Source: Halomicrobium mukohataei DSM 12286 (GTDB taxonomy: Archaea > Halobacteriota > Halobacteria > Halobacteriales > Haloarculaceae). Taken from it: a DNA stretch of 32,000 nucleotides. The position numbers and the translations under genes were made by a program. The stretch lies in contig NC_013202.1 of assembly GCF_000023965.1 (NCBI RefSeq), positions 300,001-332,000 on the forward strand. The letters are read 5' to 3'. Positions 9,855-27,487 of this stretch are shown here, piece after piece. The notes below the pieces were generated by a model, which saw only the letters and a list, made by a program, of their open reading frames with translations, searched no databases and was not told the DNA's origin. The number at the start of each line of letters is the position of its first letter. Within the stretch, counting starts at the first letter, position 1.

Positions 9855-11084
9855 GTGACACTCGCGACGCGACTCCGGGGACTGGCCCGCTTCGATGCGC
9901 TCGTGCTGACGGCGTCGCTGTGGTTCATCGGGAAGTTCCTGCGATACGCCTTCCCGCCGCTCTTTGGCACGCTGGGCGAGAGCTACGGCGTCTCGCGGAC
10001 GGTGCTCGGGACCGCATTCACGGGGTTCATGCTCGTCTACGCCGCGATGCAGTTTCCATCGGGTGCGCTGGCCGACCGGCTCGGCTCCGTTCGGGTGATC
10101 GCCGCGGGGGCGGCGCTGGCGGCGACGGGCGCGCTCGTCCTCGTCGTCGACGCACCCTTCGCCGTGCTGGCCGGCGCAATGGTGCTGATGGGGGCAGGGA
10201 CGGGCGCATACAAGACCGTCGCCGTTCGGTTGCTCTCGGGGGTCTATCCAGACCGAACAGGGCGCGCACTGGGCGTGTTCGACACGGTCGGGGCCTTCGG
10301 CGGCGTCGCCGCGCCGGCCGCCGTCGTCGCCGTCGGTGGCGTCTCACTACTCACGGGCGCGCCGTGGCGAACGGTGTTTCTGGCTGGCGGGATCGCGACA
10401 ATCGTGCTGGCGGCGCTGTTCGTCCGTCGCGTGCCCCAGCGACTCTCGTCGCGGGCCGACGACGATGCGACGGCGACGGACGCGACCGGCGATGGAGTCG
10501 CGGTCGGCGACTACCTCACGATGTTCCGCGAATGGCAGTTCGCCGGGTTCGTCGCCGTGACGATCCTGTTTTCGTTCGCCTACAACGGAACGGTCGCGTT
10601 TCTGCCGCTGTATCTCGCCGACGAGACAGCGCTGACAGCGGCGACGGCGAACCTCCTCTTTAGCGCGCTCTTCGTCGTCTCGCTCGTCCAGCTCGTGACT
10701 GGCGAGGCCAGCGACCGCGTCGGGACCGCACCGATGCTGGTGGTGACACTCGCCGTCGCCACCGCGGGACTGGTCGCAGTCCTCGTGTTCTCGGCGACCG
10801 GCGGACCGCTCGCGCTGGGCGGAGCCGTCGTCGCGCTCGGCCTGGGAGCACACGGATATCGGCCGGTCAGGGGTGCGTACCTGATGGCTGTCGTCCCCGA
10901 GGACGTGGCCGGCGGGAGCCTCGGGGTCGTCCGAACGCTGCTGATGGGAGCCGGCGCGGTCGCCCCGGCGATCGTCGGCTGGCTCTCGGACGTGGCGAAC
11001 TTCCAAGTCGCGTTCGGGCTGCTGGCAGCGGCGCTGATCGGCGCGACCGGACTCACGGCGGCGCTGTGGCTGTTCGACCGCTGA
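9855..11084 (+). CDS. MFS transporter
   Basis: 409 aa with about 12 hydrophobic segments. It has an MFS loop 2-3 style motif (GALADRLGSVRV) and a central hydrophilic loop (RLSSRADDDATATDATGDG). The start is a GTG at 9855; there is no nearby in-frame ATG. Confidence 0.85.
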   Translation: MTLATRLRGLARFDALVLTASLWFIGKFLRYAFPPLFGTLGESYGVSRTVLGTAFTGFMLVYAAMQFPSGALADRLGSVRVIAAGAALAATGALVLVVDAPFAVLAGAMVLMGAGTGAYKTVAVRLLSGVYPDRTGRALGVFDTVGAFGGVAAPAAVVAVGGVSLLTGAPWRTVFLAGGIATIVLAALFVRRVPQRLSSRADDDATATDATGDGVAVGDYLTMFREWQFAGFVAVTILFSFAYNGTVAFLPLYLADETALTAATANLLFSALFVVSLVQLVTGEASDRVGTAPMLVVTLAVATAGLVAVLVFSATGGPLALGGAVVALGLGAHGYRPVRGAYLMAVVPEDVAGGSLGVVRTLLMGAGAVAPAIVGWLSDVANFQVAFGLLAAALIGATGLTAALWLFDR

Positions 11085-11642
11085 GCGGGGAGACTGCCGT
11101 GAGCCGAGAGCGCGGTACCTGGCCGGCTCGACGGAACGGGGATCACGTCAGTAGGAACTACGCCAGAGTTTGTTCGTCGAGTATACCATTCGACACACGA
11201 TTCGGGCGGTATCGACAGTAGCTTCGGTTTTCCAACCTCATTTACATCCTATTTCGGAGTGCTAGAGTGAGAGAATGAAACAGGTGAAGAGTTCGAGCCC
11301 TTCATTAGAGTTTTTGGTCGTAGACCAGCTATTCTGTCTACAAAGCAGAGATATGGGTTCCGAATCCACCGTAGGTGCGTGCGTTTGGAGTGTCCAAACG
11401 AGAAGGAGAGGCAGAGCGGGACGCGATCGGTCAGTGCGAGCCCGGAACGCTGGCGTCGACCGGTCGACGGGCGTTCGCGGAGATCGATGGGGAACGGTCT
11501 TCGCTCGATACCGTTCGGTCAGGCCGAACAGAAGAGATTGCCAGCGGTTCCGTGAACCGACGCCTGAAGCGCGCTTCCAGCCGAGGAGCGGGACCGACGA
11601 CCCGTTCGGAGAAGGCGGTATAGTAACAATTGAAACGATTTA

Positions 11643-11688
11643 CACACCGATCGCACTGCCGTCGTGCGATCGGGTGTGCATTGATTTT
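11643..11688 (+). other. strong imperfect hairpin followed by a T4 run (terminator-like or structured-RNA element) in an unannotated gap
   Basis: Arm cacaccgatcgcac (11643-11656) pairs with gtgcgatcgggtgtg (11664-11678). That gives 14 bp with one bulged G and a 7-nt loop tgccgtc. TTTT lies at 11685-11688. Function unknown. Confidence 0.35.
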
Positions 11689-12069
11689 CGATGGCTACTA
11701 TAACAGACCACTCGTCGGCGGCGTTCAGATAACAACAATACGGTCGTTATGTAAGCGAGCAGTCGGCCGCGTCGCCAGAGAAATCTATGCTCGTATTGTT
11801 CGTCTTTCCCGAACACCGCTGTCGTGGAGAACAGCGCGAACGCCCGAAGCGCGGGCCCACGAGTCCAGAACCCGGTGGAGACGGCCAACAGCGGGCCATC
11901 TGCGTTCGTCACCACCGAACGGCAGCGAGAGCGACAGACCGTCGTCTCATACTGCCGGCTGTACGTCTGTGAAGCATATCGCGACCTCGTGGTCGCGAAA
12001 TCTTGAAACAGTTACAGCCAGCAGTATCAGTCGGAAGCTATTTTTCGGCGAGTCGTGATAGCTCGACGC

Positions 12070-12903
12070 ATGGGTACCGGATACACGGCGATGATGTACG
12101 ACCCGACAGACGTCGAGACCGCGATCAGCGACGTCAGTGCCTGTCGGTACGACGGGATCGAGATCGGCCTCGGGAAGGTCCGCGACAACGACACCGCGAC
12201 GCTAAAGCGGTGGCTCGCCGACGCGGACGTCGAGCTGTACTGCGTGATGAGCGAGTGGATCGAGAGCGACGAGGCGGTCGAGCGGATCGTCGAAGACGTG
12301 CCGACGATCGCCGATCTCGGTGCCGAGTTCCTCGGCTTGCTCCCGCCACAGCGAGGGCGACACGACGAAGCGACGGTCGAGGCGTGGTTGACCCGGGTCA
12401 GCGACGCGGCGCTGGACGCCGGCCTGCGTCCGGTCGTCCACCACCACGGCGCGACGGCGGTCGAACGGCCGTCGGAGATCCGCCACTACCTCGACGCCGT
12501 CGACGGGCTAGAGTTGCTCTTCGATACGGCACACTACTACCCGTATAGCGACCACTTCCCCGAGGGCGACGTGACCGACGCCGTCGAGCGGTTCGGCGAC
12601 GACATCGCGTACGTCCACCTCAAGGACGTCGCTCCCGGTCAGGGGTTCGCCGACAACCGGGACGCGCTCACCGACGGGGACTTCCACCTGGACAACGTGA
12701 TCAACTACTTCCGGTCGTTCACGGACCTCGGCGACGGCGTCGTAGCGTTCGGGGCGCTCGCGGACGCCCTCGACGCGGCGGGGTACGAGGGCCACTACAC
12801 GATCGAGATCGAGAACCAGACCGAAAAGCCACTCGTCCACGCCAAGGAGAACATCGACCGCTGGAGGGAGCTGTCGGTCGAGAGAGCGGCCGACGGACGA
12901 TAG
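12070..12903 (+). CDS. xylose-isomerase-like TIM-barrel protein (sugar phosphate isomerase/epimerase family), inosose-dehydratase (IolE)-like
   Basis: Start re-set to the ATG at 12070 (MGTGYTAMMYD). Blocks VVHHHGAT, LLFDTAHY, YVHLKDV, a spacer of about 30 aa, FTDLGDGVVAF and GHYTIEIENQ line up by eye with B. subtilis IolE (YHHHMGT, LLYDTGH, HVHFKDV, VPGDGDLDF, GWIVVEAEQD). The IolE sequence is recalled from memory and was not aligned computationally. Confidence 0.8.
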   Translation: MGTGYTAMMYDPTDVETAISDVSACRYDGIEIGLGKVRDNDTATLKRWLADADVELYCVMSEWIESDEAVERIVEDVPTIADLGAEFLGLLPPQRGRHDEATVEAWLTRVSDAALDAGLRPVVHHHGATAVERPSEIRHYLDAVDGLELLFDTAHYYPYSDHFPEGDVTDAVERFGDDIAYVHLKDVAPGQGFADNRDALTDGDFHLDNVINYFRSFTDLGDGVVAFGALADALDAAGYEGHYTIEIENQTEKPLVHAKENIDRWRELSVERAADGR

Positions 12904-12909
12904 CGCCGA

Positions 12910-14145
12910 TCAGTGCTTTCGGTGGTCCTCGACGGCGTCCCAGTCGAGTTCGACGCCGAGGCCCGGTCCGTCGGGCACCCGAATGCGGCCGTCGCGGATG
13001 AACGGCTCGTCGCGGACGAGCAGGTCGTCCCACCACGAGACTTCGCGGGCGTGGTACTCCAGGGCCACGAAGTTGGGGACCGTCGCACCGACGTGGACCG
13101 TCGCCGCGGTCGCGACGGGACTACCGATGTTGTGGGGGACGAGCGCCTGGTAGTAGGTCTCGGCCAGCTCGGCGATCTTCTTGGTCTCGGCGATGCCCCC
13201 GGTCTTCGGAACGTCCGGAGCGAGGAAGTCGACGGCCTGCTCTGCGACCAGGTCGCGGAAGCCGTGACGGCCGTAGCGGTTCTCGCCGGTCAACAGCGTC
13301 ACGTCGACCCGGCGTTTCAGTTCCCGCATCGCGTCCGTGTTCTCCGGCGGGAGCGGGTCCTCGATCCAGGCCAGATCGTACGGTTCGATCGCGCGACAGA
13401 GTCGCTCTGCCGTCTCGGGACTGAAGTTCCAGTGGAGGTCGACCGCGACCTCGGCGTCGTGTCCGATCTCGTCGGTGACGGCCTCGACGACGCGGCGCTT
13501 GTGTTCGATCTCCGGCGGGTCGAAGTGCCGCGAGAGCGTGTCGATCTCCCGGCCGGAGGGCACGTCGAGGTCGAACTTCACGATGTCGAATCCGTCGTCG
13601 ACGGCCCCGCGGGCCGCCCGTGCGTAGGCCTGGGGATCGTACGTCGAGGCCTCCTGTCCCTCCCTGGCGGACTCGACCATCGCCTCGCCAGCGTGACAGT
13701 CCGCGTAGACGGCGACCGATTCGCGCAGCTTGCCGCCCAGAAGCTGATAGATCGGCTGGTCGAGGAGTTTCCCCGTGGCGTCCCACAGCGCGATCTCGAC
13801 GCCGCTGATCGCGATCGTCCCGATCCCCTGCTGTGAGCCGCGCCCGGAGAGGCTCTCGCGCATGAGGTTGTACAGCCGCTCGACGTCGGTCGGGTTCTCG
13901 CCGACCAGCACCGGTCGGAGGTAGTCGGTGATGACCTCGTGGACGCCCGGCGACGGGTAGCACTCTCCGATCCCGGTGACCCCCTCGCTGGTCTCGACGG
14001 TGACGATCGTCCACGGGAAGTTGCCGTCGACGACCACCGTCTGTACGTCGGTGATCTCGCCCGGCGGACCGTCCGCCCGGCGTGGCTGTTCGTCGAAATC
14101 GGCCCACATCGTCGCTGCGAGCGTCGATGCGAAGTCTTCGTACAT
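12910..14145 (-). CDS. enolase-superfamily sugar-acid dehydratase (mandelate racemase/muconate lactonizing enzyme family; galactonate/mannonate/xylonate-dehydratase-like)
   Basis: 411 aa. The capping domain reads TIVTVETSEGVTGIGECY...SGVEIALWDATGKLLDQPIYQLLGG. Barrel metal and acid-base positions include KFDLD, AVDLHW, WIEDP, LTGENR and LVPHNIGSP. Confidence 0.9.
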   Translation of the reverse strand: MYEDFASTLAATMWADFDEQPRRADGPPGEITDVQTVVVDGNFPWTIVTVETSEGVTGIGECYPSPGVHEVITDYLRPVLVGENPTDVERLYNLMRESLSGRGSQQGIGTIAISGVEIALWDATGKLLDQPIYQLLGGKLRESVAVYADCHAGEAMVESAREGQEASTYDPQAYARAARGAVDDGFDIVKFDLDVPSGREIDTLSRHFDPPEIEHKRRVVEAVTDEIGHDAEVAVDLHWNFSPETAERLCRAIEPYDLAWIEDPLPPENTDAMRELKRRVDVTLLTGENRYGRHGFRDLVAEQAVDFLAPDVPKTGGIAETKKIAELAETYYQALVPHNIGSPVATAATVHVGATVPNFVALEYHAREVSWWDDLLVRDEPFIRDGRIRVPDGPGLGVELDWDAVEDHRKH

Positions 14146-14199
14146 GTGTTGTCGTGTATCGACGTGTGGTTTCGCTTAGTGGTTTCGGTCCGTCTCGCG

Positions 14200-15282
14200 T
14201 CAGTAATCGCCCAGCAGCGGCGCTCCCTGGATCTGTCGGAACAGATCAGCGATCAGGCGCACGTCGGCCCGTCCCTCTTCGAAGGGGGTCCGGACCTCGG
14301 CGTCGCCGCGGATACAGGCGACGAAGTGCTCGACCTCTCGCTTGAAGCTCTCCTCGTAGGCGGGCGTTCGGGTCTCGTCGGAGATCTCGTCGGTACCGCG
14401 CTTGACCCGTACCGACGGCGGCGAGTTCCGGATGAACGGGTCGTCGAAGGACAGTTCGATCATCCCCGTCGGCGAATCGACGCGGACGAACTCCTCGAAC
14501 CACTTGCGGTCCGAGAGCCCGGAATCGAGCGTACACCGCCGGCCGCCCTCGTAGACGAGGTTCGCGGTCGCGTACCGTCCGTCGGCGTACAGGTCGACGT
14601 GGTCGATCGACTCGACGCCGCCGAACAGCCCCCGCAGGAGGTTCACGTCGTGACAGATGTGTTCGAGGTGCCAGTGGTAGTCGTCGGCCAGCTCGTCGTC
14701 GTCGCTGTCGATCACCTGCTTGCTGTCGGCGAGTTGCTTCTCGCGGGTCGTCTCGACGACCGACTCGGGGACCGCGCCGTCGACGAGATCGTACACCGCC
14801 TCGATGTTGCGCCCGTGGTTCGGGTCCACGTCGTAGGCAGTGATCTTGTCGACCCGATCGAGTGCCGCGATCTCCTCGCGGGCGGCCTCGACGGCGGGCG
14901 CGTAGCGCTTGTTGTAGGCGACCATCGCGGTCGCGTCGGCCGCCTCGGCCGCCGAGACCATCCGGTCGGCGTCCGCGACGGAGACCGAGAGCGGTTTCTC
15001 GACGAGCGTGTCGATCTCCGCGCCCAGCGTCGTCTCGACCACGTCGGCGTGCTGGCTCGGCGGCGTCAACACGATCACGGCGTCGAGTTCGTCGCCGCGT
15101 TCGGCGATCATCTCGTCCGCCGACTCGTACCGGTGGGAGACGTTGTAGCGCTCGCCCAGCGTCGTGACCCGCTCGGTGGCGGGGTCGGCCAGCGCGTACA
15201 GCTCCAGATCGGGCAGTTCCGTCACGTACGGGATGTGCATGATCTGAGCGATCGTGCCACACCCGATGATACCAAATCGCAT
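14200..15282 (-). CDS. Gfo/Idh/MocA-family NAD(P)-dependent sugar/cyclitol dehydrogenase
   Basis: Start re-set to the ATG at 15282. It has an MRFGIIGCGTIAQ Rossmann motif and a VEKPL motif. The track ORF from 15393 adds 37 non-coding-looking residues. It lies upstream of the dehydratase on the same strand, 54 nt away, so an operon is likely. Confidence 0.88.
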   Translation of the reverse strand: MRFGIIGCGTIAQIMHIPYVTELPDLELYALADPATERVTTLGERYNVSHRYESADEMIAERGDELDAVIVLTPPSQHADVVETTLGAEIDTLVEKPLSVSVADADRMVSAAEAADATAMVAYNKRYAPAVEAAREEIAALDRVDKITAYDVDPNHGRNIEAVYDLVDGAVPESVVETTREKQLADSKQVIDSDDDELADDYHWHLEHICHDVNLLRGLFGGVESIDHVDLYADGRYATANLVYEGGRRCTLDSGLSDRKWFEEFVRVDSPTGMIELSFDDPFIRNSPPSVRVKRGTDEISDETRTPAYEESFKREVEHFVACIRGDAEVRTPFEEGRADVRLIADLFRQIQGAPLLGDY

Positions 15283-15306
15283 ATACGCCGTATCCGGACA
15301 GTCGGT

Positions 15307-15314
15307 GTTATAAC
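15307..15314 (-). promoter_or_regulatory. TATA-box-like palindrome GTTATAAC upstream of the Gfo/Idh/MocA-dehydratase operon
   Basis: Centred about 28 nt upstream of the ATG at 15282. It lies in the 159-nt divergent intergenic region shared with the aldolase gene. Confidence 0.35.
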
Positions 15315-15441
15315 TTCCGATAGACCGGGTGGCCCCGTCCGCGACCCCGTGATTTATTTGCACTGGCGTCCCAGAGAGGAGACGAAGACACACGGCACAG
15401 CGACCGGCGAGTGCCCAGGAGTCGCTGTGTCATCCCCACAA

Positions 15442-16233
15442 ATGACACACGTCAAAGACGCAATCGAGGCCGGAGAGTCGCCGCTCGGGACGTGGATCTC
15501 CGTCGGCCATCCCACGATCACAGAGGCGATAGCACAGCTCGACATCGACTTCCTCCTCGTCGACATGGAGCACACGACGATGAGCTTAGAGACCGTCGAG
15601 AGCATCGCACGGAGTGTCGACGCCGCCGACGGCGAGACGGAGACGGTCGTCCGGGTCCCGTGGAACGATCCCGTCCGACTGAAGCGCGTCGTCGATATCG
15701 GCGTCGCCGGGGTCATGGTCCCGATGGTCGGGACGGCCGAGGAAGCCCGCGAGCTCGTCCGCGCAGTACGATACCCGCCCGACGGGATCAGGGGGATCGC
15801 GGGCAGCCGAGCGACAGAGTACGGCCGGAACTTCGAGGAGTACGTCGCGAACGCCAACGGGACGCTCCTCACGATCGCACAGATCGAGACCGAGGAGGGA
15901 CTGGAAAACGCCGCCGAGATCGCCGCCGTCGACGGCGTCGACGCCCTGTTCGTCGGCCCCGCAGACCTCTCGGGGGCGCTGGGGAAGTTCGCGGAGTGGG
16001 ACTCCCAGTCGCTCACGACGGCCATGGCGTCGGTCATCGAGGCCGGGAACGACGCGGACGTTCCGGTCGGGACGCTGGTCACCGACCTCGACGACATCGA
16101 CACACGGGTAGAGCAGGGCCACGACTTCCTCATCGCCGGGAAAGACGTCGCACTGCTGATGGACGGCGTCGACGAAGCCATCGACCGATACGACGACGCC
16201 TTCGCGGAGACGACGCCGGCCGAACAGGACTAA
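15442..16233 (+). CDS. HpcH/HpaI-family class II 2-keto-3-deoxy-acid (pyruvate) aldolase
   Basis: This is the real gene inside the 764-aa track ORF 13939..16233. Starting at the ATG at 15442 it reads MTHVKDAIEAGESPLGTWISVGHPTITEAIAQLDIDFLLVDMEHT...VRVPWNDPVRLKRVVDIGVAGVMVPMV...IAQIETEEGLENAAEIAAVDGVDALFVGPADLS. This is typical of the GarL/RhmA/HpcH family. Confidence 0.88.
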   Translation: MTHVKDAIEAGESPLGTWISVGHPTITEAIAQLDIDFLLVDMEHTTMSLETVESIARSVDAADGETETVVRVPWNDPVRLKRVVDIGVAGVMVPMVGTAEEARELVRAVRYPPDGIRGIAGSRATEYGRNFEEYVANANGTLLTIAQIETEEGLENAAEIAAVDGVDALFVGPADLSGALGKFAEWDSQSLTTAMASVIEAGNDADVPVGTLVTDLDDIDTRVEQGHDFLIAGKDVALLMDGVDEAIDRYDDAFAETTPAEQD

Positions 16234-16244
16234 CGGTCGGCGCG

Positions 16245-16264
16245 CTCGAACGTCGGCGTTCGAG
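16245..16264. terminator. 8-bp perfect hairpin between convergent genes (possible bidirectional terminator)
   Basis: CTCGAACG (16245-16252), loop TCGG, CGTTCGAG (16257-16264). It lies in the 46-nt gap between the aldolase stop (16233) and the aldehyde dehydrogenase stop (16280). There is no adjacent T-run. Confidence 0.3.
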
Positions 16265-16279
16265 GCGGACAGCGTCGGA

Positions 16280-17776
16280 CTAGCTGTACCAGCGCTCGAT
16301 CTCGATCGTCTTGTCCGTGTAGAAGGCGACGGCGTCCTCGCCCTGCGCGTGGAGATCACCGAAGAACGACTCCTTCGTGCCCCCGAAGTGGAAGAACCCC
16401 ATCGGCGCGCAGACGCCGACGTTGACGCCGATGTTGCCGGCGTCGACCTCGTATCGGTACTGGCGTGCCTCGCCGCCGTCCTCGGTGAAGATCGAGGAGG
16501 CGTTGCCGTACTCCGTGCCGTTGACCATCTCGATGGCGTCGTCCAGCGACGGCCGGGCGGCGAGACACAGGACCGGGCCGAAGATCTCGGTCTGGGCGAT
16601 CTCCATGTCGGCCGTGACGCCCGCCAGCAGCGTCGGCCCCAGGAAGTTCCCGTCGGGGTAGTCGGGGTGTTCGAACCCGCGTCCGTCGACGACGACCTCC
16701 GCGCCCTCCGCGACGGCCTCGGCGATCAGTTCCGTGACCCGTTCGCGAGACGCGCCGGTGATGAGCGGGCCGACGTCGGTGTCCTCGTCGAGGCCGCGTC
16801 CGACGGTCAGGTCCTCGACCGCATCGACGAGGGCTCCACGCAGCTCGTCGTACACGTCACCGACGGCGACGACCACGTCGTTGGCCAGGCAGCGCTGCCC
16901 GGCGTTGGCGTAGCCCGAGCCGACGATGTTTGGCACCGCCCGGTCGAGTTCGGCCGACGGCGTGACGACCGCGAAGTTCTTCGCGCCGCCCTGGGCCTGG
17001 ACGCGCTTGCCGTGCTGGGCGGCGGTCTCGTAGACGTGTCGAGCGACCGGCGTCGAACCGACGAACGAGACTCCCTCGATACCGTCGTGTTCCAGCAGCG
17101 CGTCGACCGTCTCGACGCCGCCGTTGACGAGAGTGACGACGCCGTCGGGGAACTCGACGGCCTCGATCGCCTCGAAGATGAGCTGTGCGGTGAGCGGCAC
17201 CTTCTCGCTGGGCTTGAGGACGAAGGTGTTCCCCGTCGCGACCGCGTAGGGGAGGAACCACAGCGGGATCATCGCCGGGAAGTTGAACGGCGTGACGGCG
17301 GCGAAGGTCCCCAGTGGCTGGCGGACCGCCGTCTCGTCCATCCCGACGGCGACGTCTTCGACGGTCCCGCTGGCCTCGCGGAGCATGTTCGGGATGCCGG
17401 TGGCGACTTCGACGTTCTCGATCCCGCGGCGGAGCTCCCCGCGGGCCTCCTCGACGGTCTTGCCGTGTTCCCGAGAGAGCGCGTGCGCGATCTGTTCCTC
17501 CCGCGCTTCCAGTTCGTGTTTCAGGTCGAAGAGGTACTGGACCCGCTCGACCGGTGGCGTTCGCCGCCACTCCTCGAAGGCGTCGTTGGCCGTCCGGACC
17601 GCTCGGTCGACGTCGTCGGCGCTGGAAAACGGTACGTCGGCGAGGCGCTCTCCCGTGGCCGGATCGACGACCGGCTGGCCATCCGCCGACCCGGACGCCC
17701 ACTCGCCGCCGACGTAGTTCCGGACGGCGTCGGGGATCGCAGTCGCTGCTGGGGGCTGCTCGTGCTTGCGTGTCAT
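16280..17776 (-). CDS. mmsA: CoA-acylating methylmalonate/malonate-semialdehyde dehydrogenase (MmsA/IolA-type ALDH)
   Basis: 498 aa ALDH. It shows FNFPAMIPLWFLPYAVATGNTFVLKPSEK, GGAKN and GQRCLA (catalytic Cys). The family-specific C-terminus is GVNVGVCAPMGFFHFGGTKESFFGDLHAQGEDAVAFYT. Confidence 0.88.
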   Translation of the reverse strand: MTRKHEQPPAATAIPDAVRNYVGGEWASGSADGQPVVDPATGERLADVPFSSADDVDRAVRTANDAFEEWRRTPPVERVQYLFDLKHELEAREEQIAHALSREHGKTVEEARGELRRGIENVEVATGIPNMLREASGTVEDVAVGMDETAVRQPLGTFAAVTPFNFPAMIPLWFLPYAVATGNTFVLKPSEKVPLTAQLIFEAIEAVEFPDGVVTLVNGGVETVDALLEHDGIEGVSFVGSTPVARHVYETAAQHGKRVQAQGGAKNFAVVTPSAELDRAVPNIVGSGYANAGQRCLANDVVVAVGDVYDELRGALVDAVEDLTVGRGLDEDTDVGPLITGASRERVTELIAEAVAEGAEVVVDGRGFEHPDYPDGNFLGPTLLAGVTADMEIAQTEIFGPVLCLAARPSLDDAIEMVNGTEYGNASSIFTEDGGEARQYRYEVDAGNIGVNVGVCAPMGFFHFGGTKESFFGDLHAQGEDAVAFYTDKTIEIERWYS

Positions 17777-17862
17777 GCGTTGATGGAGTCAGGACGAGAC
17801 CACATAGATGTTACGACAGCGACGTTCCAGAGCCGGGACCGCCGGCAGCGAGCGGCCGCGGC

Positions 17863-19602
17863 TTACTCTTCGAGGTCCGCGAGGTCCCACTCGCCGGTGA
17901 CGATCGCGCCGGAGTCGGGGTTGTCTGGCTCGACGACCGCCTCGACCATCGCGGGCCCGTCGTGGGCGATCGCGTCGTCGAGGACGGCGTCGAGGTTCTC
18001 GGGCTTGACGACGCGCTCGGCGTAGCCGAGGTTGAACGAGTCGGCCATCGCCATGTAGTCGACCCCCGAGTCCTCGTCGAACTCCGTGTTGAGGACGCGG
18101 TCCCAGCCGTACTTGTCGACCTGGAGGTTCCGGATCGACTTCCAGCCACGGTTGTTGAGGACCAGGTAGGTCACGTCGACGCCGTGTTCGACGGCCGCGG
18201 CCACCTCCTGGTTACACATCAGGAAGCTCCCGTCGCCCTCGACGTCGACGACGGGGCTGTCCGGCTTGCCGAGTTTGGCACCGATGGCCGCCGAGACGCC
18301 AAAGCCCATCGTCGAGAAGCCGCCACAGGAGACGTTCGTCCGGGGCTCGTACACCGGGAACTCGGGGTTGACCGTCTCCTGGGGCTGGCCGGCACTGGAG
18401 ACGACGACGCCGTCTCTGGGCAACACCTCGCGCAGCGACGCCAGCACGCGGGAGATGCTCATCGGGACGCTGTCGTCGTCCCAGCGCTCCTGGACCATCG
18501 CGGCCCACTCGTCCCACAGCTCCTGTATCTCCGCGTAGTAGTCGTTGTCTTCGGTCGAGACCGGCTCCATCCGCTCGCGCAGTTGCTCGGTGAGCTGGCG
18601 AGTGACCACCTTCGCGTCGCCCTGGATGCCGACCTCGATGGGGTAGTTCTTCCCGATCTCCTGGGGGTCGATGTCGACGTGGATCAGCTTGCTCGGCGGG
18701 ATCTCGAAGCTGACGCCCGCCTCGAACGACGAGGTGTGCATATCGGTGAAGCGACAGCCGACGGCGAGGATCGTGTCGGCGTTGGACGCCAGCTCGTTCC
18801 CGGCCGTCGAGCCGATCCACCCCGCGTAGCCGACGAACAGGTCGTGGTCCTCGGGGATGATCCCCTTGGCCTGGAACGTCGGGACGACGGGTGCCTGGAG
18901 GTGTTCGGCCAGCGCTTGCACCTCGTCCCAGGCCTCCGCGAGCATCGTCCCGCCGCCGGGAACGATCACCGGCCGGTCGGCCTCGGCAAGCAGCGTCGCG
19001 GCCTCCGAGACGGTCTCCGGATCGCCACCGGGGCGACTGTGCGGGCGGTGCTTGGTGGGTTCGGGCAGCGTCACGTCGGCGACAGCGCCCTGTACGTCCA
19101 TCGGAACGTCGACGTGAACCGGCCCCGGACGACCGGAGCGGGCGATCTGGAAGGCCCGCCGGAGCACGCGGGGGAGGTGCTCGACGGAGGTGACCTCAAA
19201 GCTCTGTTTCGTGACCGGCTCCATGACGCTCGGGAAGTCGCCGGGCTTCTGGCGTTCGATCTCCTGGAGGATCCCCTGTCCGTACTCGTGGGTCTGTGGC
19301 GCGCCGGTGAAGACGACCATCGGGATCGAGTCGACGTAGGCCGTCGCGACGCCGGTGACCGTGTTGGTCGCACCGGGGCCGATCGAGGTGAAGACGGCCA
19401 GCGGTTCGCCGGTCACGCGGGCGTACCCGTCTGCGAGGTGGGCGGCACCTTGCTCGTGACGCGGCTGGACGACCGATACGTCGGAGTCGTTGAAGGCGTC
19501 GAGCAGGTTCGTGCTCCCGTGGCCGGGAATCCCGACGAGGTACTCGACGCCCTCCTTCTCCAGATACGTGGCGATAATCTCGCCACCGTTCATTCGAGAC
19601 AT
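17863..19602 (-). CDS. thiamine-diphosphate-dependent enzyme of the acetolactate-synthase/IolD/Xsc superfamily; substrate not assignable from sequence alone
   Basis: 579 aa. The N-terminal Pyr domain has the canonical cofactor-activating Glu (PRHEQGAAHLADGYARV). It also shows SIGPGATNTVTGVATAY, ARSGRPGPVHVDVPMDV and the C-terminal ThDP motif VEGDGSFLMCNQE...LVLNN. Confidence 0.9.
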   Translation of the reverse strand: MSRMNGGEIIATYLEKEGVEYLVGIPGHGSTNLLDAFNDSDVSVVQPRHEQGAAHLADGYARVTGEPLAVFTSIGPGATNTVTGVATAYVDSIPMVVFTGAPQTHEYGQGILQEIERQKPGDFPSVMEPVTKQSFEVTSVEHLPRVLRRAFQIARSGRPGPVHVDVPMDVQGAVADVTLPEPTKHRPHSRPGGDPETVSEAATLLAEADRPVIVPGGGTMLAEAWDEVQALAEHLQAPVVPTFQAKGIIPEDHDLFVGYAGWIGSTAGNELASNADTILAVGCRFTDMHTSSFEAGVSFEIPPSKLIHVDIDPQEIGKNYPIEVGIQGDAKVVTRQLTEQLRERMEPVSTEDNDYYAEIQELWDEWAAMVQERWDDDSVPMSISRVLASLREVLPRDGVVVSSAGQPQETVNPEFPVYEPRTNVSCGGFSTMGFGVSAAIGAKLGKPDSPVVDVEGDGSFLMCNQEVAAAVEHGVDVTYLVLNNRGWKSIRNLQVDKYGWDRVLNTEFDEDSGVDYMAMADSFNLGYAERVVKPENLDAVLDDAIAHDGPAMVEAVVEPDNPDSGAIVTGEWDLADLEE

Positions 19603-19625
19603 CTCGTCCGTACTGACGGAACCCC

Positions 19626-19635
19626 AATTATTAAA
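19626..19635 (-). promoter_or_regulatory. TATA-box-like element upstream of the ThDP-enzyme gene
   Basis: Minus-strand tttaataatt is centred about 28 nt upstream of the ATG at 19602. It lies in the 63-nt gap after the F420/LLM gene. Confidence 0.35.
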
Positions 19636-19665
19636 CGTACCTCAAAGCGGACGGCCCGGTCACGC

Positions 19666-20643
19666 TCACAGCGACGGGATGACCTCGTCACCCATCACCT
19701 CGAAGAACCGTTCCGGCTCCGGACTGGTGTTGCCGAGCGCGATCCGGTCGAAGCCCATCTCCGCGTACGCTTCGAGCTGGCCGGCGATCTCGGCGGGGTC
19801 GTCGGCGATGAGGAACTTCGCCTCGACCTGTTCGCGCGTGGCCTTCTCCCCCTCGCGCTCGATCTCTTTCGGGTTCGCCAGCGCGCGGTCGAAGACGTCC
19901 TGCGTGGTCGCCCACCACGGACGGGTCGATTCGCGGGCCCGCTCGCGGTCCTCGTCGTAGGACGCGATCACGAGCAGCGTCGTCTCGATCTGGTCGGGGT
20001 CTCGGCCGGCGTCCGTCGCGTATCGCCTGATCGCCGGGTACATCCGTTCCGTGTACTCCTCGCCGGTCTTGACCGTGATGAATCCGTCCCCGTACTCGCC
20101 GGTCAGCGACGCCGTGCTGGGACCGTTGGCCGCGATCTGTACCTCGGGTCGTTCGTCGGGCATCGTGTAGAGGCGGGCGTCGTCGACCTCGTAGTGCTCG
20201 CCCTCGTAGCTGTAGAAGCCGTCGTTCTCCCAGAGGCCGTGGACGATCTCCAGGGTCTCTTCGAGGCGGTTGCGCCGGACGCCGTAGTCGGGCCACTCGT
20301 GTCCGAGCGGTTTCTCGTTCATCGCCTCGCCGGTCGAGAGCCCGAGGACGACCCGCTCGTCGTGCATCGACTGGAGCGTGGCGAAGGCCTGGGCGACGAG
20401 CGCGGGGTGGTAGTGTTCGCCTGCCGGCGTCACGCACGTCCCGACCGGGAGATCGACGCGCTCGATCGCCGCCCCGAGCCACGACCACGCGAACCCCGCC
20501 TCCGCGTCCGTGTGAAACCAGGGGTGGAAGTGATCCGACGTCCAGATGAAGTCGAACCCGTTCGCCGCAGCGAGCTCGGAGAACGCCAGTAGCTCCGACG
20601 GACTGTACTGCTCCTGGTGGGCCATGTAATCGACTGCGACCAT
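19666..20643 (-). CDS. LLM-class, F420-dependent glucose-6-phosphate-dehydrogenase-family oxidoreductase
   Basis: Start re-set to the ATG at 20643 (MVAVDYMAHQEQYSPSELL). The track ORF from 21039 adds 132 residues that run antisense across the iclR promoter and iclR 5' end. Blocks DYMAHQEQYSPSELL..FIWTSDHFHPW and CVTPAGEHYHPALVAQAFATLQSMHDERVVLGLSTGEAMNE parallel mycobacterial FGD (GYKASAEQFAPRELV..SDHFQPW; VLTPTFRYNPAVIAQAFATM..VFLGVGTGEALNE). The FGD sequence is recalled from memory. Confidence 0.85.
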   Translation of the reverse strand: MVAVDYMAHQEQYSPSELLAFSELAAANGFDFIWTSDHFHPWFHTDAEAGFAWSWLGAAIERVDLPVGTCVTPAGEHYHPALVAQAFATLQSMHDERVVLGLSTGEAMNEKPLGHEWPDYGVRRNRLEETLEIVHGLWENDGFYSYEGEHYEVDDARLYTMPDERPEVQIAANGPSTASLTGEYGDGFITVKTGEEYTERMYPAIRRYATDAGRDPDQIETTLLVIASYDEDRERARESTRPWWATTQDVFDRALANPKEIEREGEKATREQVEAKFLIADDPAEIAGQLEAYAEMGFDRIALGNTSPEPERFFEVMGDEVIPSL

Positions 20644-20774
20644 CGTACTCCCGGATTTCGGCGAGAACCGTATAGCCTTTTCCCTGTGAGACGCGGTCGT
20701 CGTTGCCCCCCGTCGCCGACCCGGATCCGTTTGGCTACCACGAACGCCCCCAATCGTTCGCACTAGCCGAACGA

Positions 20775-20781
20775 CTATATA
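20775..20781 (+). promoter_or_regulatory. TATA-box-like element (CTATATA) of the iclR-family gene
   Basis: Centred 26 nt upstream of the ATG at 20804, which implies a leaderless mRNA. It is immediately preceded by inverted CGAACG/CGTTCG half-sites. Confidence 0.4.
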
Positions 20782-20803
20782 CCACTGGCCTGTACAGCCG
20801 GGC

Positions 20804-21568
20804 ATGGCCAGCGAGCACCAGTCCCGAACGGTGGACGCGGTACAGACGAGCCTGGACATCATCGAGTTCCTCCAGTCGGTCGAGAGCGCCGGGATCACGG
20901 AGATCGCCGACGCGGTGGACCGATCGAAAGGGACGGTCCACGGACACATGGCGACGCTCGTCGACAACGAGTACGTCGTGAACGACGACGGCACGTACCG
21001 GCTGAGTCTCCAGTATCTCGACCTCGCCGAGACGGTCAAAGGCCGTCTCCAGATCTACGACGTGGTGCGCAAGGAGCTGGACGATCTGGCAGAGGAGTGT
21101 GGCGAGCTCGCGCAGTTCGCCACCGAGGAGCACGGAAAGGCGGTGTACATCTACAAGACCGAGGGCGAAGACGCCGTCCAGACCGCGTCGTCGGTCGGCA
21201 ACCGGGCGCATCTCCACTGTCTCTCGCTGGGCAAGGCGATGCTCGCACGGATGGACGAGAGCCGGGTCGAAGCGATCGTCGACGAGCACGGACTGCCGGG
21301 GTTCACCGACGCGACGATCACCACCCGGAGTGAGCTGTTCGAAGAACTCGAAGGGATACGCGAGCGCGGCTACGCCTTCGACCGCGAAGAGCGCATCGAG
21401 GGCCTGCGCTGTGTCGCCGCCCCGATCACGATGAACGACGAAGTGATGGGCGCGATCAGCATCTCCGGGCCGGCCAGTCGCTTCAGCGGACCGCTGTACG
21501 AAGACGAACTCCCGAACCTGGTGACGCGGTCGGCCAACGTCATCGAGATCAACGCGCAGTTCTCCTGA
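20804..21568 (+). CDS. IclR-family transcriptional regulator
   Basis: 254 aa. The N-terminal wHTH reads VQTSLDIIEFLQSVESAGITEIADAVDRSKGTVHGHMATLVDNEYV. The C-terminal IclR effector domain shows LHCLSLGKAMLA, GYAFDREERIEGLRCVAAPI and GAISISGPASR. Confidence 0.92.
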   Translation: MASEHQSRTVDAVQTSLDIIEFLQSVESAGITEIADAVDRSKGTVHGHMATLVDNEYVVNDDGTYRLSLQYLDLAETVKGRLQIYDVVRKELDDLAEECGELAQFATEEHGKAVYIYKTEGEDAVQTASSVGNRAHLHCLSLGKAMLARMDESRVEAIVDEHGLPGFTDATITTRSELFEELEGIRERGYAFDREERIEGLRCVAAPITMNDEVMGAISISGPASRFSGPLYEDELPNLVTRSANVIEINAQFS

Positions 21569-22203
21569 TGCCGTCGGTCGTGCGTCTGTACAGTAGTGCC
21601 GTGTCGGAGGCCAGACCGGCCAGGTGTCGAGCGGTAGAGAGTATGGGTTCGTCTCTCGCAAACGATTTGCCGTCGTTCGGTGACCGGCGGTCGTCTCAGC
21701 GACGACGCACGGAGTCCATCAGGAATAATCACACTGTTTCGACAATAGAATAACACGAGTACCGTTGATACGGGATTGTTTCGTTCCCGCCGCTTCGCAG
21801 AGAACTCGTCGAACGGAATTGCGTTTGGGAGTCGCGAACGTCGCGGTGTCGCGAACGCCGAGAGCGGTACCGAGAGACAGCGAGCGTTTCCTCATCGTCC
21901 CACAGTAGAACCGTCGAGACCGCAGATATCGGGCATCGTCTCGCGGGGCTCGCGAGCGGTCGGCCGCGGGCGCTCGACGCGACGGGCGGGGAAACTGCCG
22001 ACGACGCGGGGCTGTTACGACGGTTTCGTTCGGCCCTCCCGAACAGAGTGGCGGCGACTCGACGCGGTTTCGGACGGGTGCAGGGCGCTGTAGAACAGGG
22101 GACTGCGGATGGTTCGCGGTTGCGGTTCGTACCGTGAGCGATCCTGCGAGGTTCGCGACTCGGGGCCGGGGCGTCGTCGCGGCCGTTCAGCCGACCGCCT
22201 CGA

Positions 22204-23094
22204 TCACTCCGTCAGGAGGTCCCACCGGTCGACGAACAGTCCATCGACGCCCGCGTCGACGAGTCGTCTCGCGGTCTTCGAGTCGTCGACGGTCCACGTG
22301 TTCACCTCGAACCCCTCGGCGTGTGCCCGTTCGACGAAGTCGGTGTCGAGAACGAGGTCGACGCCGGGGTTGACCGCCACGCAGTCCATCTCGTCGGCGA
22401 AAGAGAGGCTCCGTTCCGGGGCGTCACTGACGAGGAAGGCGAGTGCGGCGGCGTCGTCGCGCTCGCGAACCTCGCGGAGCGCGTCCGGCGAGAACGACGA
22501 GAAGAGGACCTCGTTGTCGCACTCGTCGGCGGCGCTAACGACCTCCGCTGCCATGCCGTCGTGCTTGAGCTCGATGTTGACCGCCGTGTCCGACGGGACC
22601 GCCGACAGGAACGCCGAGAGTCGCGGGATGGTCTCCTCGGAGTCGAGGATCGTGAGCTCGCGCAGTTCCTCCCAGTCGGTCGTCGCGACCGGTCCCGTCG
22701 CGTCGGTCAGCCGGTCGAGCTCGTCGTCGTGGAACACGACGAGTTCACCGGAGCCACACCGCTGTACGTCGAACTCGATCATGTCGACGTGTGGTGCGGA
22801 CTGCTCGACGGCGAAGATCGTGTTCTCGGGGTACTGGTCGGCACAGCCGCGGTGACCGATGAGCCGAACGTCGTCCTCCCGAGTGCGCGAAGCCGTCTCG
22901 GTTCCGTGACCCGATCCCCCGGTACAGCCCGCGAGGAGCGTGGCGAGACCTCCGAGCCCCGACCGGACGAGTCCGCGCCGTCCCACCGGGAGAGAGAGCG
23001 GGCGAGCGGGACTCGCTCCGTCGTGCCAGCCTGCGGTGAGAGAGGCTGCTGGCGCGTCCGCACACGGGGCACCGTTCGCGAATGTCGGCCACAT
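22204..23094 (-). CDS. ugpQ: glycerophosphodiester phosphodiesterase (GDPD), predicted Tat-exported lipoprotein
   Basis: The GDPD catalytic N-terminus reads LIGHRGCADQYPENTIFA...IEFDVQRCGSGELVVFHDDEL. The signal is GRRGLVRSGLGGLATLLAGC (twin-Arg plus lipobox). The ATG at 23094 lies 4 nt after the upstream ATPase stop. An alternative GTG at 22986 would give the more canonical signal MGRRGLV. Confidence 0.85.
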   Translation of the reverse strand: MWPTFANGAPCADAPAASLTAGWHDGASPARPLSLPVGRRGLVRSGLGGLATLLAGCTGGSGHGTETASRTREDDVRLIGHRGCADQYPENTIFAVEQSAPHVDMIEFDVQRCGSGELVVFHDDELDRLTDATGPVATTDWEELRELTILDSEETIPRLSAFLSAVPSDTAVNIELKHDGMAAEVVSAADECDNEVLFSSFSPDALREVRERDDAAALAFLVSDAPERSLSFADEMDCVAVNPGVDLVLDTDFVERAHAEGFEVNTWTVDDSKTARRLVDAGVDGLFVDRWDLLTE

Positions 23095-23098
23095 CGTG

Positions 23099-24238: not shown

Positions 24239-24243
24239 AGTAA

Positions 24244-25128
24244 TCACTTCCGTTGGACAGCGAACGTCTGCAGGAGCGGCCGGTGAAGCACAATCAAGAC
24301 GAGCAGTGGCGGCAGCAGGGCGATACAGGCACCCGCCATGATCAGGCCCCAGGGCGTCAGTCCGGCCTGTGCCGACCCCTGAAGGTAGCTGATCCCGACC
24401 TGCACCACCTGCGAACTCTTGTCGTTGACCGCGACGAGGGGCCAGAGGAACTGGTTCCACGAGTAGATGTAGGTGATGACACAGACGCCGGCGATCATCC
24501 CCTTCGACATCGGGATCAGGACCTTGAACAGGAATGTGGCCGGTCCAATTCCGGACATCCGGGCCGTCTCGACCAGCGAACTCGGGATCGACATGAAGTG
24601 CTGGCGGAACAGGAACACGGCGGTCGCACTGGCGATGTACGGACCCGTCAGTGCGAGCATCGTGTTCGTCCACCCCAGGTCCGCCATCAGCTGGAACAGC
24701 GGGACGATACGGACCGGTACCGGCAACAGCAGCGTCAGGAGGATGAACATGAACACCGCACGTTCGTAGGGGAGTTCGTAGTAGACCAGCGCCAGCGCCG
24801 CCAGCAGCGAGATACCGACCTTGCCGACGACGATGATGATGCTCATCACGAACGAGTTGAGCAGGTACGTGGTGAACTGGTACTCAGAGAGGACCGTCTG
24901 GTAGTTCGACAGCCCCTGACTCCCCAGGCCGAGGTTCGTCACCTCGTAGACCTCGGAGGTCGTCTGCGTGCTCATGATGATCGCGAGCAAGAGCGGGGCC
25001 GCCATCGCGACGATCGAGAGGATGATCCCGACGTGCATCGCCAGGTTGTCGGGCAGTCGCTGGCTGATCGTCCGTGATTCGTCGACGGGCGTTGAGTCTG
25101 TTTCCGTTGTAGTTGCCATCGTAGTCAC
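24244..25128 (-). CDS. ugpE: ABC transporter permease, UgpE-like
   Basis: 294 aa. Blocks LLNSFVMS, ASATAVFLFRQHFMSIPSSLVETARMSG and VITYIYSWNQFLWPL parallel E. coli UgpE ([51 protein letters not shown]; recalled from memory). Confidence 0.88.
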   Translation of the reverse strand: MTTMATTTETDSTPVDESRTISQRLPDNLAMHVGIILSIVAMAAPLLLAIIMSTQTTSEVYEVTNLGLGSQGLSNYQTVLSEYQFTTYLLNSFVMSIIIVVGKVGISLLAALALVYYELPYERAVFMFILLTLLLPVPVRIVPLFQLMADLGWTNTMLALTGPYIASATAVFLFRQHFMSIPSSLVETARMSGIGPATFLFKVLIPMSKGMIAGVCVITYIYSWNQFLWPLVAVNDKSSQVVQVGISYLQGSAQAGLTPWGLIMAGACIALLPPLLVLIVLHRPLLQTFAVQRK

Positions 25129-26018: not shown

Positions 26019-26047
26019 AGTTGAGCAATAAAAGTTCGCGCTCGCGG

Positions 26048-27454: not shown

Positions 27455-27481
27455 CTCCACCCCCAGAGTTGTAGTAATAGA

Positions 27482-27487
27482 ATATAA
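27482..27487 (-). promoter_or_regulatory. TATA-box-like element upstream of the ugpB-like gene
   Basis: Minus-strand ttatat lies within aaagaattatattctatt, centred about 31 nt upstream of the ATG at 27454. It sits in a locally AT-rich patch. Confidence 0.35.

Follow-up and report, generated by a model that had tools for sequence, protein, structure and literature searches.

A seven-enzyme island beside an IclR regulator in Halomicrobium mukohataei as a possible reduced core of a haloarchaeal, kinase-free cyclitol-degradation cluster

The DNA analyzed here is a 32,000-bp stretch of Halomicrobium mukohataei DSM 12286 (contig NC_013202.1, positions 300,001–332,000), termed the window, and all coordinates are counted from its first base. 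At positions 12070–21568, the window contains seven enzyme genes next to a gene for an IclR-family regulator. An earlier inspection of the letters and translated frames, made without database searches (the sequence-only reading), had proposed that this island encodes part of the myo-inositol pathway joined to a bypass without phosphorylation. All eight genes were located, and every family is backed by Pfam.

12070–12903, + strand: xylose-isomerase-like TIM barrel, a remote IolE relative and candidate inosose dehydratase (PF01261, 73.5 bits)
12910–14145, − strand: enolase-superfamily (mandelate racemase subgroup) acid-sugar dehydratase (ENO), candidate 5-deoxyglucarate dehydratase (PF02746 and PF13378)
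14200–15282, − strand: Gfo/Idh/MocA NAD(P) oxidoreductase (Gfo), probably co-transcribed with the dehydratase gene (PF01408, N-terminal domain only)
15442–16233, + strand: HpcH/HpaI class II pyruvate aldolase (PF03328, 145.5 bits)
16280–17776, − strand: CoA-acylating (methyl)malonate-semialdehyde dehydrogenase (MMSDH), an aldehyde dehydrogenase (ALDH) of the IolA type (TIGR01722, 521.8 bits)
17863–19602, − strand: three-domain thiamine diphosphate (ThDP) enzyme resembling acetolactate synthase (ALS), candidate ring-cleaving hydrolase (three ThDP Pfam domains)
19666–20643, − strand: F420-type luciferase-like oxidoreductase (LLM) of the FGD/Adf family, leading the LLM-ThDP-MMSDH unit (TIGR03557, 238.8 bits)
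20804–21568, + strand: IclR-family regulator, divergent from the LLM-ThDP unit (PF01614 and PF09339)

The genes form five transcription units (TIM; Gfo→ENO; HpcH; LLM→ThDP→MMSDH; IclR), in agreement with an earlier estimate of four or more. We propose that the island is the reduced core of an IclR-controlled haloarchaeal cluster that would degrade a cyclitol without phosphorylated intermediates, and we put the probability of the specific seven-step route set out below, in which the two oxidoreductases may exchange roles, at about 0.4. That the cluster handles a cyclitol at all is reasonably probable.

The island and its counterparts in other haloarchaea

Because the high GC content of this DNA (~66% over the window) yields many long spurious open reading frames, genes were picked by codon-position GC together with family matches. 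In the real frames, the GC content of third codon positions is 0.84–0.92, and the island proteins are highly acidic (aspartate plus glutamate, 16–21%), both of which indicate genuine haloarchaeal genes. Long frames opposite the real genes comprise 13939–16233 (+, 764 codons), 17314–20592 (+, 1092 codons), and 16349–18025 (+, 558 codons); the first of these ends in the true HpcH gene, which takes up its final 263 codons, and apart from this the long frames are high-GC artifacts. The true start of the TIM gene is the ATG at 12070. Intergenic gaps measure 54 bp in Gfo→ENO and 63 and 86 bp in LLM→ThDP→MMSDH. Neither a kinase nor a lactonase family is found among the Pfam annotations of the whole window, and its Rfam and tRNA scans gave no match; a bacterial sigma-70 promoter scan was set aside as not applicable to archaea. 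The window region is 96–97% identical in nucleotide sequence to Halomicrobium katesii DSM 19301, and its ThDP protein shares 98% identity with one from Halomicrobium sp. IBSBa. In two Halomicrobium strains, all eight genes are intact, with protein identities of 96–99%.

Sequence comparison identifies the island as the core of an IclR-linked cluster conserved across more than 30 haloarchaeal genomes. All seven enzyme genes have orthologues in one conserved cluster in Haloarcula, Haloferax, Haloterrigena, Haladaptatus, Natrinema, and other genera. Orthologues of the ThDP enzyme, 77–99% identical and often megaplasmid-borne, are spread over more than 30 haloarchaeal genera and occur in Haloarcula, Haloferax sulfurifontis, Halogeometricum, Haloterrigena, Natrinema, Haladaptatus, Halomarina, Halopenitus, Salinigranum, and many metagenomes. 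In 36 haloarchaeal loci anchored on the ThDP gene and viewed over 10 kb to either side, the other genes were counted as follows.

LLM: 32 of 36 loci
Dehydratase (73–88% identical across genera): 29 of 36 loci
MMSDH: 24 of 36 loci
IclR: 24 of 36 loci
HpcH: 22 of 36 loci
IolE-like TIM barrel: 22 of 36 loci
Window-type Gfo: 14 of 36 loci

The lower counts are partly an artifact of flank length, since a 42-kb view of Haloarcula sp. JP-L23 places the TIM orthologue and a Gfo orthologue (58% identity) 18–20 kb from the ThDP gene. The LLM gene lies immediately upstream of the ThDP gene in 24 of the 36 loci, and the Gfo→ENO adjacency is retained in six. Gene order is reshuffled between genera. The co-occurrence in haloarchaea that the sequence-only reading had suggested examining is observed: the same families stand together in more than 20 genomes despite this rearrangement, a signature of functional coupling.

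The full clusters of other genera carry extra genes, namely an IolM-type zinc-dependent dehydrogenase, a short-chain dehydrogenase/reductase (SDR), an aldo-keto reductase (AKR), further Gfo and zinc alcohol dehydrogenase (Zn-ADH) paralogues, a CUT1 ABC or DMT transporter, and sometimes a second LLM. The zinc-dependent dehydrogenase is an equivalog of IolM (scyllo-inosose 3-dehydrogenase), matching NF041097 over its full length with 543.6 bits against a cut-off of 450, and PGAP gives these haloarchaeal genes the name iolM. Its best solved relative, with twice the score of any other, is PDB 3ip1, which we take to be TM0412 of Thermotoga maritima. The IolM gene occurs in 29 of the 36 loci and adjoins the ThDP gene in 21; on one short contig, LLM, ThDP, and IolM stand together. 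The presence of this equivalog in the orthologous clusters supports, independently of the island enzymes, a link to inositol.

As claimed earlier, the island contains no IolB isomerase, IolC kinase, IolJ aldolase, or other kinase, and tblastn searches with Priestia IolB, IolC, and IolJ gave no match in the window. The same searches of 40 haloarchaeal loci (832 kb) returned nothing for IolB, one PfkB-type match for IolC (23% identity), and one aldolase match for IolJ (29%). With two weak single matches in 832 kb, the homologous islands essentially never carry iolB, iolC, or iolJ, as the sequence-only reading had expected, and a dedicated kinase is essentially never found in the conserved cluster.

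Several variants of the cluster were noted. In Haloarcula sp. JP-L23 (locus L044, 28361–30414), two genes are located between the dehydratase gene and a CUT1 ABC transporter: one encodes a second LLM of TIGR03557, a paralogue that shares 72% identity with the window LLM, and the other a CtBP-type D-2-hydroxyacid dehydrogenase. A plasmid of Haladaptatus pallidirubidus (L047, 4321–20977) carries a compact version in which HpcH, Gfo→ENO, and TIM are arranged as in the window, a CUT1 ABC transporter is joined with LLM, ThDP, and AKR in one unit, and iolM is annotated by name; MMSDH is not within this stretch.

The regulator is conserved together with the cluster: its orthologues are 59–77% identical and adjoin the cluster in the 24 loci counted above. 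The palindrome GTTCG-N7-CGAAC recurs two to three times in the iclR/LLM divergent region of each of ten orthologous loci. Perfect matches to it number five in the window, where chance would give 0.13; all of them fall in non-coding DNA flanking or between island genes, at the following places.

11513–11920, no strand: three perfect palindromes (11513, 11798, and 11904) in the non-coding stretch upstream of the TIM gene, from a motif scan
20729–20772, no strand: two operator-like palindromes in the iclR/LLM divergent promoter region (perfect copy at 20756, one-mismatch copy at 20729)
21647–22044, no strand: perfect palindrome at 22028 and one-mismatch copies at 21647 and 21823 in the non-coding stretch after iclR, from a motif scan

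These palindromes are kept in H. katesii. Because the motif is common to the TIM and iclR/LLM promoter regions, it ties the TIM gene to the LLM-ThDP-MMSDH unit. As a definition of the full regulon the palindrome was rejected: in the window only these two regions are marked, and the Gfo/HpcH promoter is without a copy; in Haloarcula-type clusters, perfect palindromes are confined to the iclR/LLM region.

At the edges of the island, two unusually long non-coding stretches are observed, 11085–12054 (970 bp) and 21569–22203 (~630 bp), with a GC content of about 0.59–0.63. Together they hold four of the five perfect window palindromes as well as degenerate copies. The palindromes of the second stretch have no obvious target gene, as this stretch lies downstream of both iclR and a glycerophosphodiester phosphodiesterase (GDPD) gene. 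In these stretches and upstream of the neighboring ABC transporter operon, no remnants of IolM, SDR, AKR, Zn-ADH, EamA, or Gfo were found above noise, and the non-coding stretches have no Rfam match. A GGGGAAACTG element in 21569–22203 is similar to a conserved promoter element that precedes the LLM gene in Haloarcula clusters.

Family relationships of the seven enzymes

The TIM barrel had been called IolE-like from its HHH, DTAH, HLKDV, and GDG motifs. All of these motifs were verified, and the HHH, DTxH, HxKDV, and GDG blocks align with IolE. The name stands as a statement of nearest family, IolE being the sole NCBIfam match at E ≤ 1e-5, and fails at the level of the equivalog: on TIGR04379, the protein scores 79.3 bits against a cut-off of 290 (NCBIfam scores are given throughout as bits against the equivalog or subfamily cut-off), with residues 108–264 alone aligned. 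The Haloarcula orthologue scores 71.1 bits on the same model. A profile of 20 orthologues, searched against the whole PDB, retrieved IolE (3cny, E = 3.4e-11) and an entry named "Iole protein" (9zmu, E = 3.1e-7), followed by weak matches of 6.6e-5 or worse; IolI, IolO, Hyi, and sugar epimerases were not retrieved. The NCBIfam library searched includes an IolO model, to which the protein gives no match. By these comparisons, the TIM barrel is closer to IolE than to the other xylose-isomerase-like TIM barrels, including IolI, IolO, Hyi, and the epimerases. JGI and some UniProt entries name the orthologues "inosose dehydratase". An AlphaFold2 model based on 20 orthologues (mean pLDDT 64.8, C-terminal half below 50) was too poor for a fold search.

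The ThDP enzyme had been assigned to the IolD superfamily, which holds only in the broad sense of ThDP enzymes. Its best NCBIfam model is ALS (TIGR00118; 437.2 bits, cut-off 538). The IolD model, TIGR04377 (cut-off 715), is not among its 25 best models, and since all of these score at least 300 bits, the enzyme lies below 300 bits on TIGR04377. An annotated iolD product from a Priestia plasmid, found with a partial IolD sequence that served purely as a probe, was used for calibration. This Priestia IolD scores 890 bits on TIGR04377, and the window ThDP enzyme shares 27% identity with it (179 bits). Because the enzyme lies below the TIGR04377 and TIGR00118 cut-offs and has this low identity to IolD, it is by NCBI criteria neither IolD nor ALS and is best placed in an unnamed clade. 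PGAP names the protein just "thiamine pyrophosphate-binding protein", and no ilvN-like ALS small-subunit gene is present in the window or the orthologous loci.

Among solved structures, the ThDP enzyme is detectably related to cyclohexane-1,2-dione hydrolase (CDH) of Azoarcus (PDB 2pgn), another ALS-like ThDP enzyme, which contains FAD and hydrolytically opens a cyclic 1,2-dione. CDH provides a precedent for the role proposed below, but its score of 173.6 bits is exceeded by those of ALS (279 bits), Gcl (235 bits), and HACL/OXC (224 bits), so that CDH is no nearer to the window enzyme than many other ThDP families and the resemblance is a lead only. A glyoxylate carboligase/Hyi reading of the ThDP and TIM genes was rejected (Gcl, 328 versus 791 bits; no Hyi match), as were sulfoquinovose and levoglucosan readings (Xsc, 328 versus 676 bits; the LLM is of the FGD type, not the SsuD type; no LgdA-like Gfo protein in the window).

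Other relatives of the ThDP enzyme are found both within and outside the archaea. Haloarcula species have a second ThDP paralogue with 66–67% identity (L031 and L032; L007, 18338–20074), which is encoded either elsewhere on the chromosome, together with a Zn-ADH, or directly 3′ of the dehydratase gene of the main cluster. Bacterial homologues (44–48% identity) are encoded in Rhizobium bangladeshense p4 (L042), on a Priestia megaterium plasmid (L043), and on an Arthrobacter plasmid (L046). Their neighbors encode a HisD-like dehydrogenase, a GMC oxidoreductase, Gfo-family enzymes, ThuA, a major facilitator superfamily (MFS) transporter, and LacI or LysR regulators, and the loci look like an uncharacterized cluster for oxidizing a sugar or polyol, centered on this ThDP clade. 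The LLM adjoining a bacterial ThDP homologue is unrelated to the window LLM. These bacterial loci were discarded as a functional lead, as their neighbors are not iol genes and they are uninformative for inositol.

The island encodes two oxidoreductases. An IolG-like role had been envisaged for the Gfo protein, and this is not borne out at the equivalog level: it scores 88.9 bits against a cut-off of 355 on TIGR04380, through its Rossmann domain only. For comparison, a Gfo protein from a Priestia iol cluster scores 320.7 bits on this model. The top PDB matches of the window Gfo are glucose-fructose oxidoreductase (GFOR) and DgpA, with inositol dehydrogenases weaker. For the LLM, the F420-type assignment of the sequence-only reading agrees with a score above the TIGR03557 cut-off of 210.4; on the FMN-type sister model TIGR03885, its 242.8 bits fall under the cut-off of 398.7. 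Its top PDB matches are the F420-dependent alcohol dehydrogenase Adf (1rhc, 224 bits) and FGD1 (204 bits), and use of F420 by the LLM is predicted from these relationships.

On present evidence from sequence, the Gfo and LLM enzymes appear interchangeable in the two oxidations of the proposed route, which corrects the earlier scheme. A cyclitol dehydrogenase role for the LLM and a 5-deoxyglucuronate dehydrogenase role for Gfo would fit because the Gfo gene adjoins ENO and the LLM gene adjoins ThDP, and because the structural relatives of Gfo oxidize sugar hemiacetals and the best relative of the LLM is a secondary-alcohol dehydrogenase. The analogy with FGD, together with redox considerations, would favor the earlier version, in which the LLM oxidizes 5-deoxyglucuronate.

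The Pfam families of the dehydratase and the aldolase agree with those named before. The best-scoring equivalog models for the dehydratase are all below cut-off: GalD (218 versus 311 bits), gluconate/galactonate dehydratase (192 versus 750), ManD (182 versus 550), RhmD (150 versus 393), and GlucD (56 versus 829). The best solved relative, 2qq6, is a protein of unknown function. For HpcH, the nearest models are HpaI (186 versus 369 bits), GarL (180 versus 407), and RhmA (129 versus 441), and its top PDB matches are HpaI and GarL, both of which are dicarboxylate aldolases, before YfaU. The ALDH had been recognized as an MMSDH of the IolA type, which is confirmed by the match to TIGR01722 across residues 18–496, above the cut-off of 448.5. 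Its identity to the MMSDH occupying the iolA position of a Priestia iol operon is 41%, and on the model for the alpha-ketoglutarate-semialdehyde dehydrogenase DioxValDhHalo it scores 354 bits (cut-off 750).

A candidate route and its alternatives

In the canonical route, inositol is oxidized to scyllo-inosose by IolG, dehydrated to trihydroxycyclohexane-1,2-dione by IolE, and converted to 5-deoxyglucuronate by IolD; IolB, IolC, and IolJ then lead to dihydroxyacetone phosphate (DHAP) and malonate semialdehyde, from which IolA forms acetyl-CoA. In the route proposed for the island, one of the two oxidoreductases would oxidize the cyclitol to an inosose, which the IolE-like TIM barrel would dehydrate to the cyclohexane-1,2-dione. 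The ALS-like ThDP enzyme, as a non-orthologous stand-in for IolD, would open the ring to give 5-deoxyglucuronate. The other oxidoreductase would then oxidize C1 to yield 5-deoxyglucarate or its lactone, and the enolase-superfamily enzyme would dehydrate this product to 4-hydroxy-2-oxohexanedioate. Cleavage by the HpcH aldolase would release pyruvate and malonate semialdehyde, the latter being converted to acetyl-CoA and CO2 by MMSDH. The most likely substrate is myo- or scyllo-inositol; the substrate, every reaction, and the step order are inferred from sequence relationships.

Four considerations favor a cyclitol route. The island has a minimal set of enzymes, exactly seven, and each can be paired with one of the seven steps, so that every island enzyme has a use, as had been claimed. 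An IolE-like dehydratase, a ThDP enzyme, and an IolA-type MMSDH are combined here, with IolM in the sister clusters. The aldolase is nearer to the dicarboxylate aldolases HpaI and GarL than to RhmA. Finally, CDH is a precedent for an ALS-like ThDP enzyme that opens a ring.

Several observations weigh against this route. The alignments of the TIM barrel and Gfo proteins with IolE and IolG are partial and far below the cut-offs. The ThDP enzyme is nearer to ALS models than to IolD, to which it is distantly related, and its ring cleavage is assumed from analogy. The dehydratase more closely resembles mono-acid dehydratases (GalD, gluconate, and ManD) than the aldarate dehydratase GlucD. The main inositol signal is missing from the window itself: no IolM, SDR, or AKR gene is found there or in H. 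katesii, and no Halomicrobium protein is among the best 120 IolM homologues listed. Within the island, no gene for a dedicated sugar transporter can be recognized, and the palindrome was not found in the Gfo/HpcH divergent promoter. The absence of iolB, iolC, and iolJ covers the window and the 832 kb of loci, and canonical iol genes may lie elsewhere in the genome. In the literature searched, no growth, expression, or enzyme data on the cluster were found. As a whole, the sequence-only interpretation is partly supported.

For its first three steps, the iol pathway of Bacillus subtilis relies on superfamilies that the island also contains, namely Gfo dehydrogenases, IolE-related TIM barrels, and ThDP enzymes, and both end in a CoA-acylating MMSDH, with malonate semialdehyde as the predicted last intermediate. 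Unlike the B. subtilis pathway, the island lacks IolB, IolC, and IolJ, its ThDP enzyme is not an IolD orthologue, and its TIM barrel and Gfo proteins are remote from IolE and IolG. In place of the phosphorylated branch, the island has an enolase-type dehydratase, an HpcH aldolase, and an F420-type LLM, and its regulator is IclR rather than IolR. The succession of an enolase-superfamily dehydratase and an HpcH-family aldolase, which releases pyruvate and a C3 or C4 acid semialdehyde, is reminiscent of the lower pathways for glucarate/galactarate (GudD/GarD and GarL) and homoprotocatechuate (HpaI). In contrast to GudD/GarD and GarL, the island dehydratase is not GlucD-like, and its predicted substrate is a 5-deoxy aldarate. 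The semialdehyde would be handled by MMSDH instead of the tartronate-semialdehyde reductase or succinate-semialdehyde dehydrogenase of the GarL and HpaI pathways.

A second inositol gene set outside the classical iol operon is known from Thermotoga. Rodionova and colleagues reportedly described in 2013 a Thermotoga maritima inositol route, IolG-IolM-IolN-IolO, that has IolM as one of its enzymes. This route is cited in PMC12632266 and PMC3750489. The orthologous haloarchaeal clusters share the IolM equivalog with it. The window has no IolM, no counterpart of IolN or IolO was detected in the window or the orthologous clusters, and the Thermotoga route is without the ThDP, LLM, ENO, HpcH, and MMSDH genes that are all present in the island.

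The IolM gene raises the alternative that the cluster degrades a cyclitol by other chemistry. A diketo-inositol of the IolM type, or an acyloin-type opening of an inosose by the ThDP enzyme, could give a fully hydroxylated uronate or dialdose and then an aldarate, which would undergo dehydration as glucarate does in its catabolism and be cleaved in the manner of GarL to pyruvate and tartronate semialdehyde for the MMSDH-type enzyme; the Halomicrobium island, without IolM, would be a specialized or partly decayed version. The adjacency of IolM and ThDP in 21 loci and the LLM-ThDP-IolM contig are in keeping with this chemistry, as are the nearly equal HpcH scores on GarL and HpaI and the many additional dehydrogenases of the full clusters (SDR, AKR, Zn-ADH, and Gfo); moreover, a ThDP enzyme that is not IolD-like need not act on the product of IolE. 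Yet the window and H. katesii retain seven intact genes without IolM, IolN and IolO homologues are lacking and the TIM barrel does not match the IolO model, and the IolE-like dehydratase would be left without a role. To our knowledge, action of an MMSDH on tartronate semialdehyde is undocumented. We consider this alternative unlikely.

A further alternative, which had been named along with the original proposal, is an oxidative, non-phosphorylative pathway for an aldose or deoxysugar of the Dahms or RhmD/RhmA type. Here, Gfo would be a sugar 1-dehydrogenase followed by an aldonate dehydratase and the HpcH aldolase under IclR control, and the ThDP, LLM, MMSDH, and TIM enzymes would act on the resulting aldehyde or in the use of some other substrate. 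IclR regulators control known pentose and rhamnose clusters of haloarchaea. The island resembles the xac pentose cluster (XacR) of Haloferax volcanii and the rhamnose cluster in having IclR, a Gfo-type dehydrogenase, an enolase-superfamily dehydratase, and an ALDH, in being kinase-free, and in the frequent plasmid location. The best PDB matches of Gfo are hemiacetal oxidizers (GFOR and an aldose-aldose oxidoreductase), the dehydratase is nearest to galactonate, gluconate, and mannonate dehydratase models, and CUT1 sugar ABC transporters occur within the orthologous clusters. The differences are that the island has neither a lactonase nor an FAH-type KDX dehydratase, that its semialdehyde dehydrogenase is an MMSDH rather than one for alpha-ketoglutarate semialdehyde, and that its ThDP, LLM, and IolE-like genes have no counterpart in the xac and rhamnose clusters. 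The proteins also fail the corresponding equivalogs, with XacA-type Gfo6 at 68 versus 350 bits in addition to the RhmD and RhmA scores given above, and a CoA-acylating MMSDH would be unsuited to glycolaldehyde, lactaldehyde, or glyceraldehyde. Four of the seven conserved enzymes would be without a role despite their tight co-conservation and common operator, and the IolM equivalog and IolE-like TIM barrel indicate cyclitols. An aldose pathway is therefore judged improbable.

It is very unlikely that there is no single pathway, the genes being chance neighbors from independent catabolic units or a non-functional remnant left after the loss of IolM, SDR, AKR, and a transporter: the five transcription units, the operator motif at two promoters only, the shuffled gene order, the long flanking stretches with orphan operator copies, and the lack of the accessory genes of other genera would suit such a mosaic, but it is opposed by the joint occurrence in more than 20 genomes, the intact and nearly identical genes of two Halomicrobium strains, and the lack of detectable pseudogene remnants.

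Catabolism of inositol has been regarded as essentially bacterial: a 2022 survey of 1,511 archaeal genomes encountered canonical iol clusters in only a handful of them, and its conclusion was that bacteria alone have the capability (PMC9430895). The author of the sequence-only reading was not aware of such a route, and in the full-text literature searched, no description of haloarchaeal inositol degradation, 5-deoxyglucarate, or 4-hydroxy-2-oxohexanedioate was found. The hint of inositol is not entirely new, as public annotation already marks IolM, MMSDH, and, in IMG, "inosose dehydratase"; it is the pathway logic that is new. The broader notion that haloarchaea widely hold a complete kinase-free inositol pathway is rather doubtful. 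In that pathway, an ALS-like ThDP enzyme would have convergently replaced IolD, an F420-type LLM would carry out one oxidation, and an aldarate-like lower half would lead from 5-deoxyglucarate through 4-hydroxy-2-oxohexanedioate to pyruvate and malonate semialdehyde.

If the cyclitol route is correct, the known range of non-phosphorylative sugar pathways in archaea would be widened by a conserved route assembled from different parts, and the ALS-like ThDP, enolase, and HpcH families would each acquire a new function. F420, the importance of which in halophilic archaea has been termed "enigmatic" (PMC8305020), would gain a defined catabolic role in haloarchaea, possibly the first in carbohydrate catabolism there. 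Generic annotations such as "thiamine pyrophosphate-binding protein", "TIM barrel protein", and "aldolase" would be corrected in many genomes. With its seven enzymes and single regulator, the Halomicrobium island represents a naturally minimal form that would be useful in reconstitution.

Neighboring genes

On the side of iclR, the island is flanked by the GDPD gene with a Ugp-like ABC transporter, MgtC, and Orc1/Cdc6. The Ugp-like operon (22204–27532, − strand) encodes a UgpB-like binding protein (210 versus 411 bits), two permeases, UgpC (453 versus 432 bits), and GDPD, and its location beside iclR is observed in Halomicrobium only. If the diester were glycerophosphoinositol, this operon would deliver free inositol to the island, a connection that is speculative because no operator copy lies upstream of the operon; on these two grounds, the occurrence in Halomicrobium only and the upstream region without an operator copy, the GDPD/Ugp-like operon was not accepted as part of the unit.

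The other flank contains ABCE1/RLI, UvrA, and an MFS transporter. The MFS transporter gene (9855–11084), upstream of the island, encodes a protein that is 83% identical between two Halomicrobium strains, compared with 96–99% for the island proteins, and its weak family matches are to organic-acid transporters for galactonate, phosphoglycerate, and lactate.

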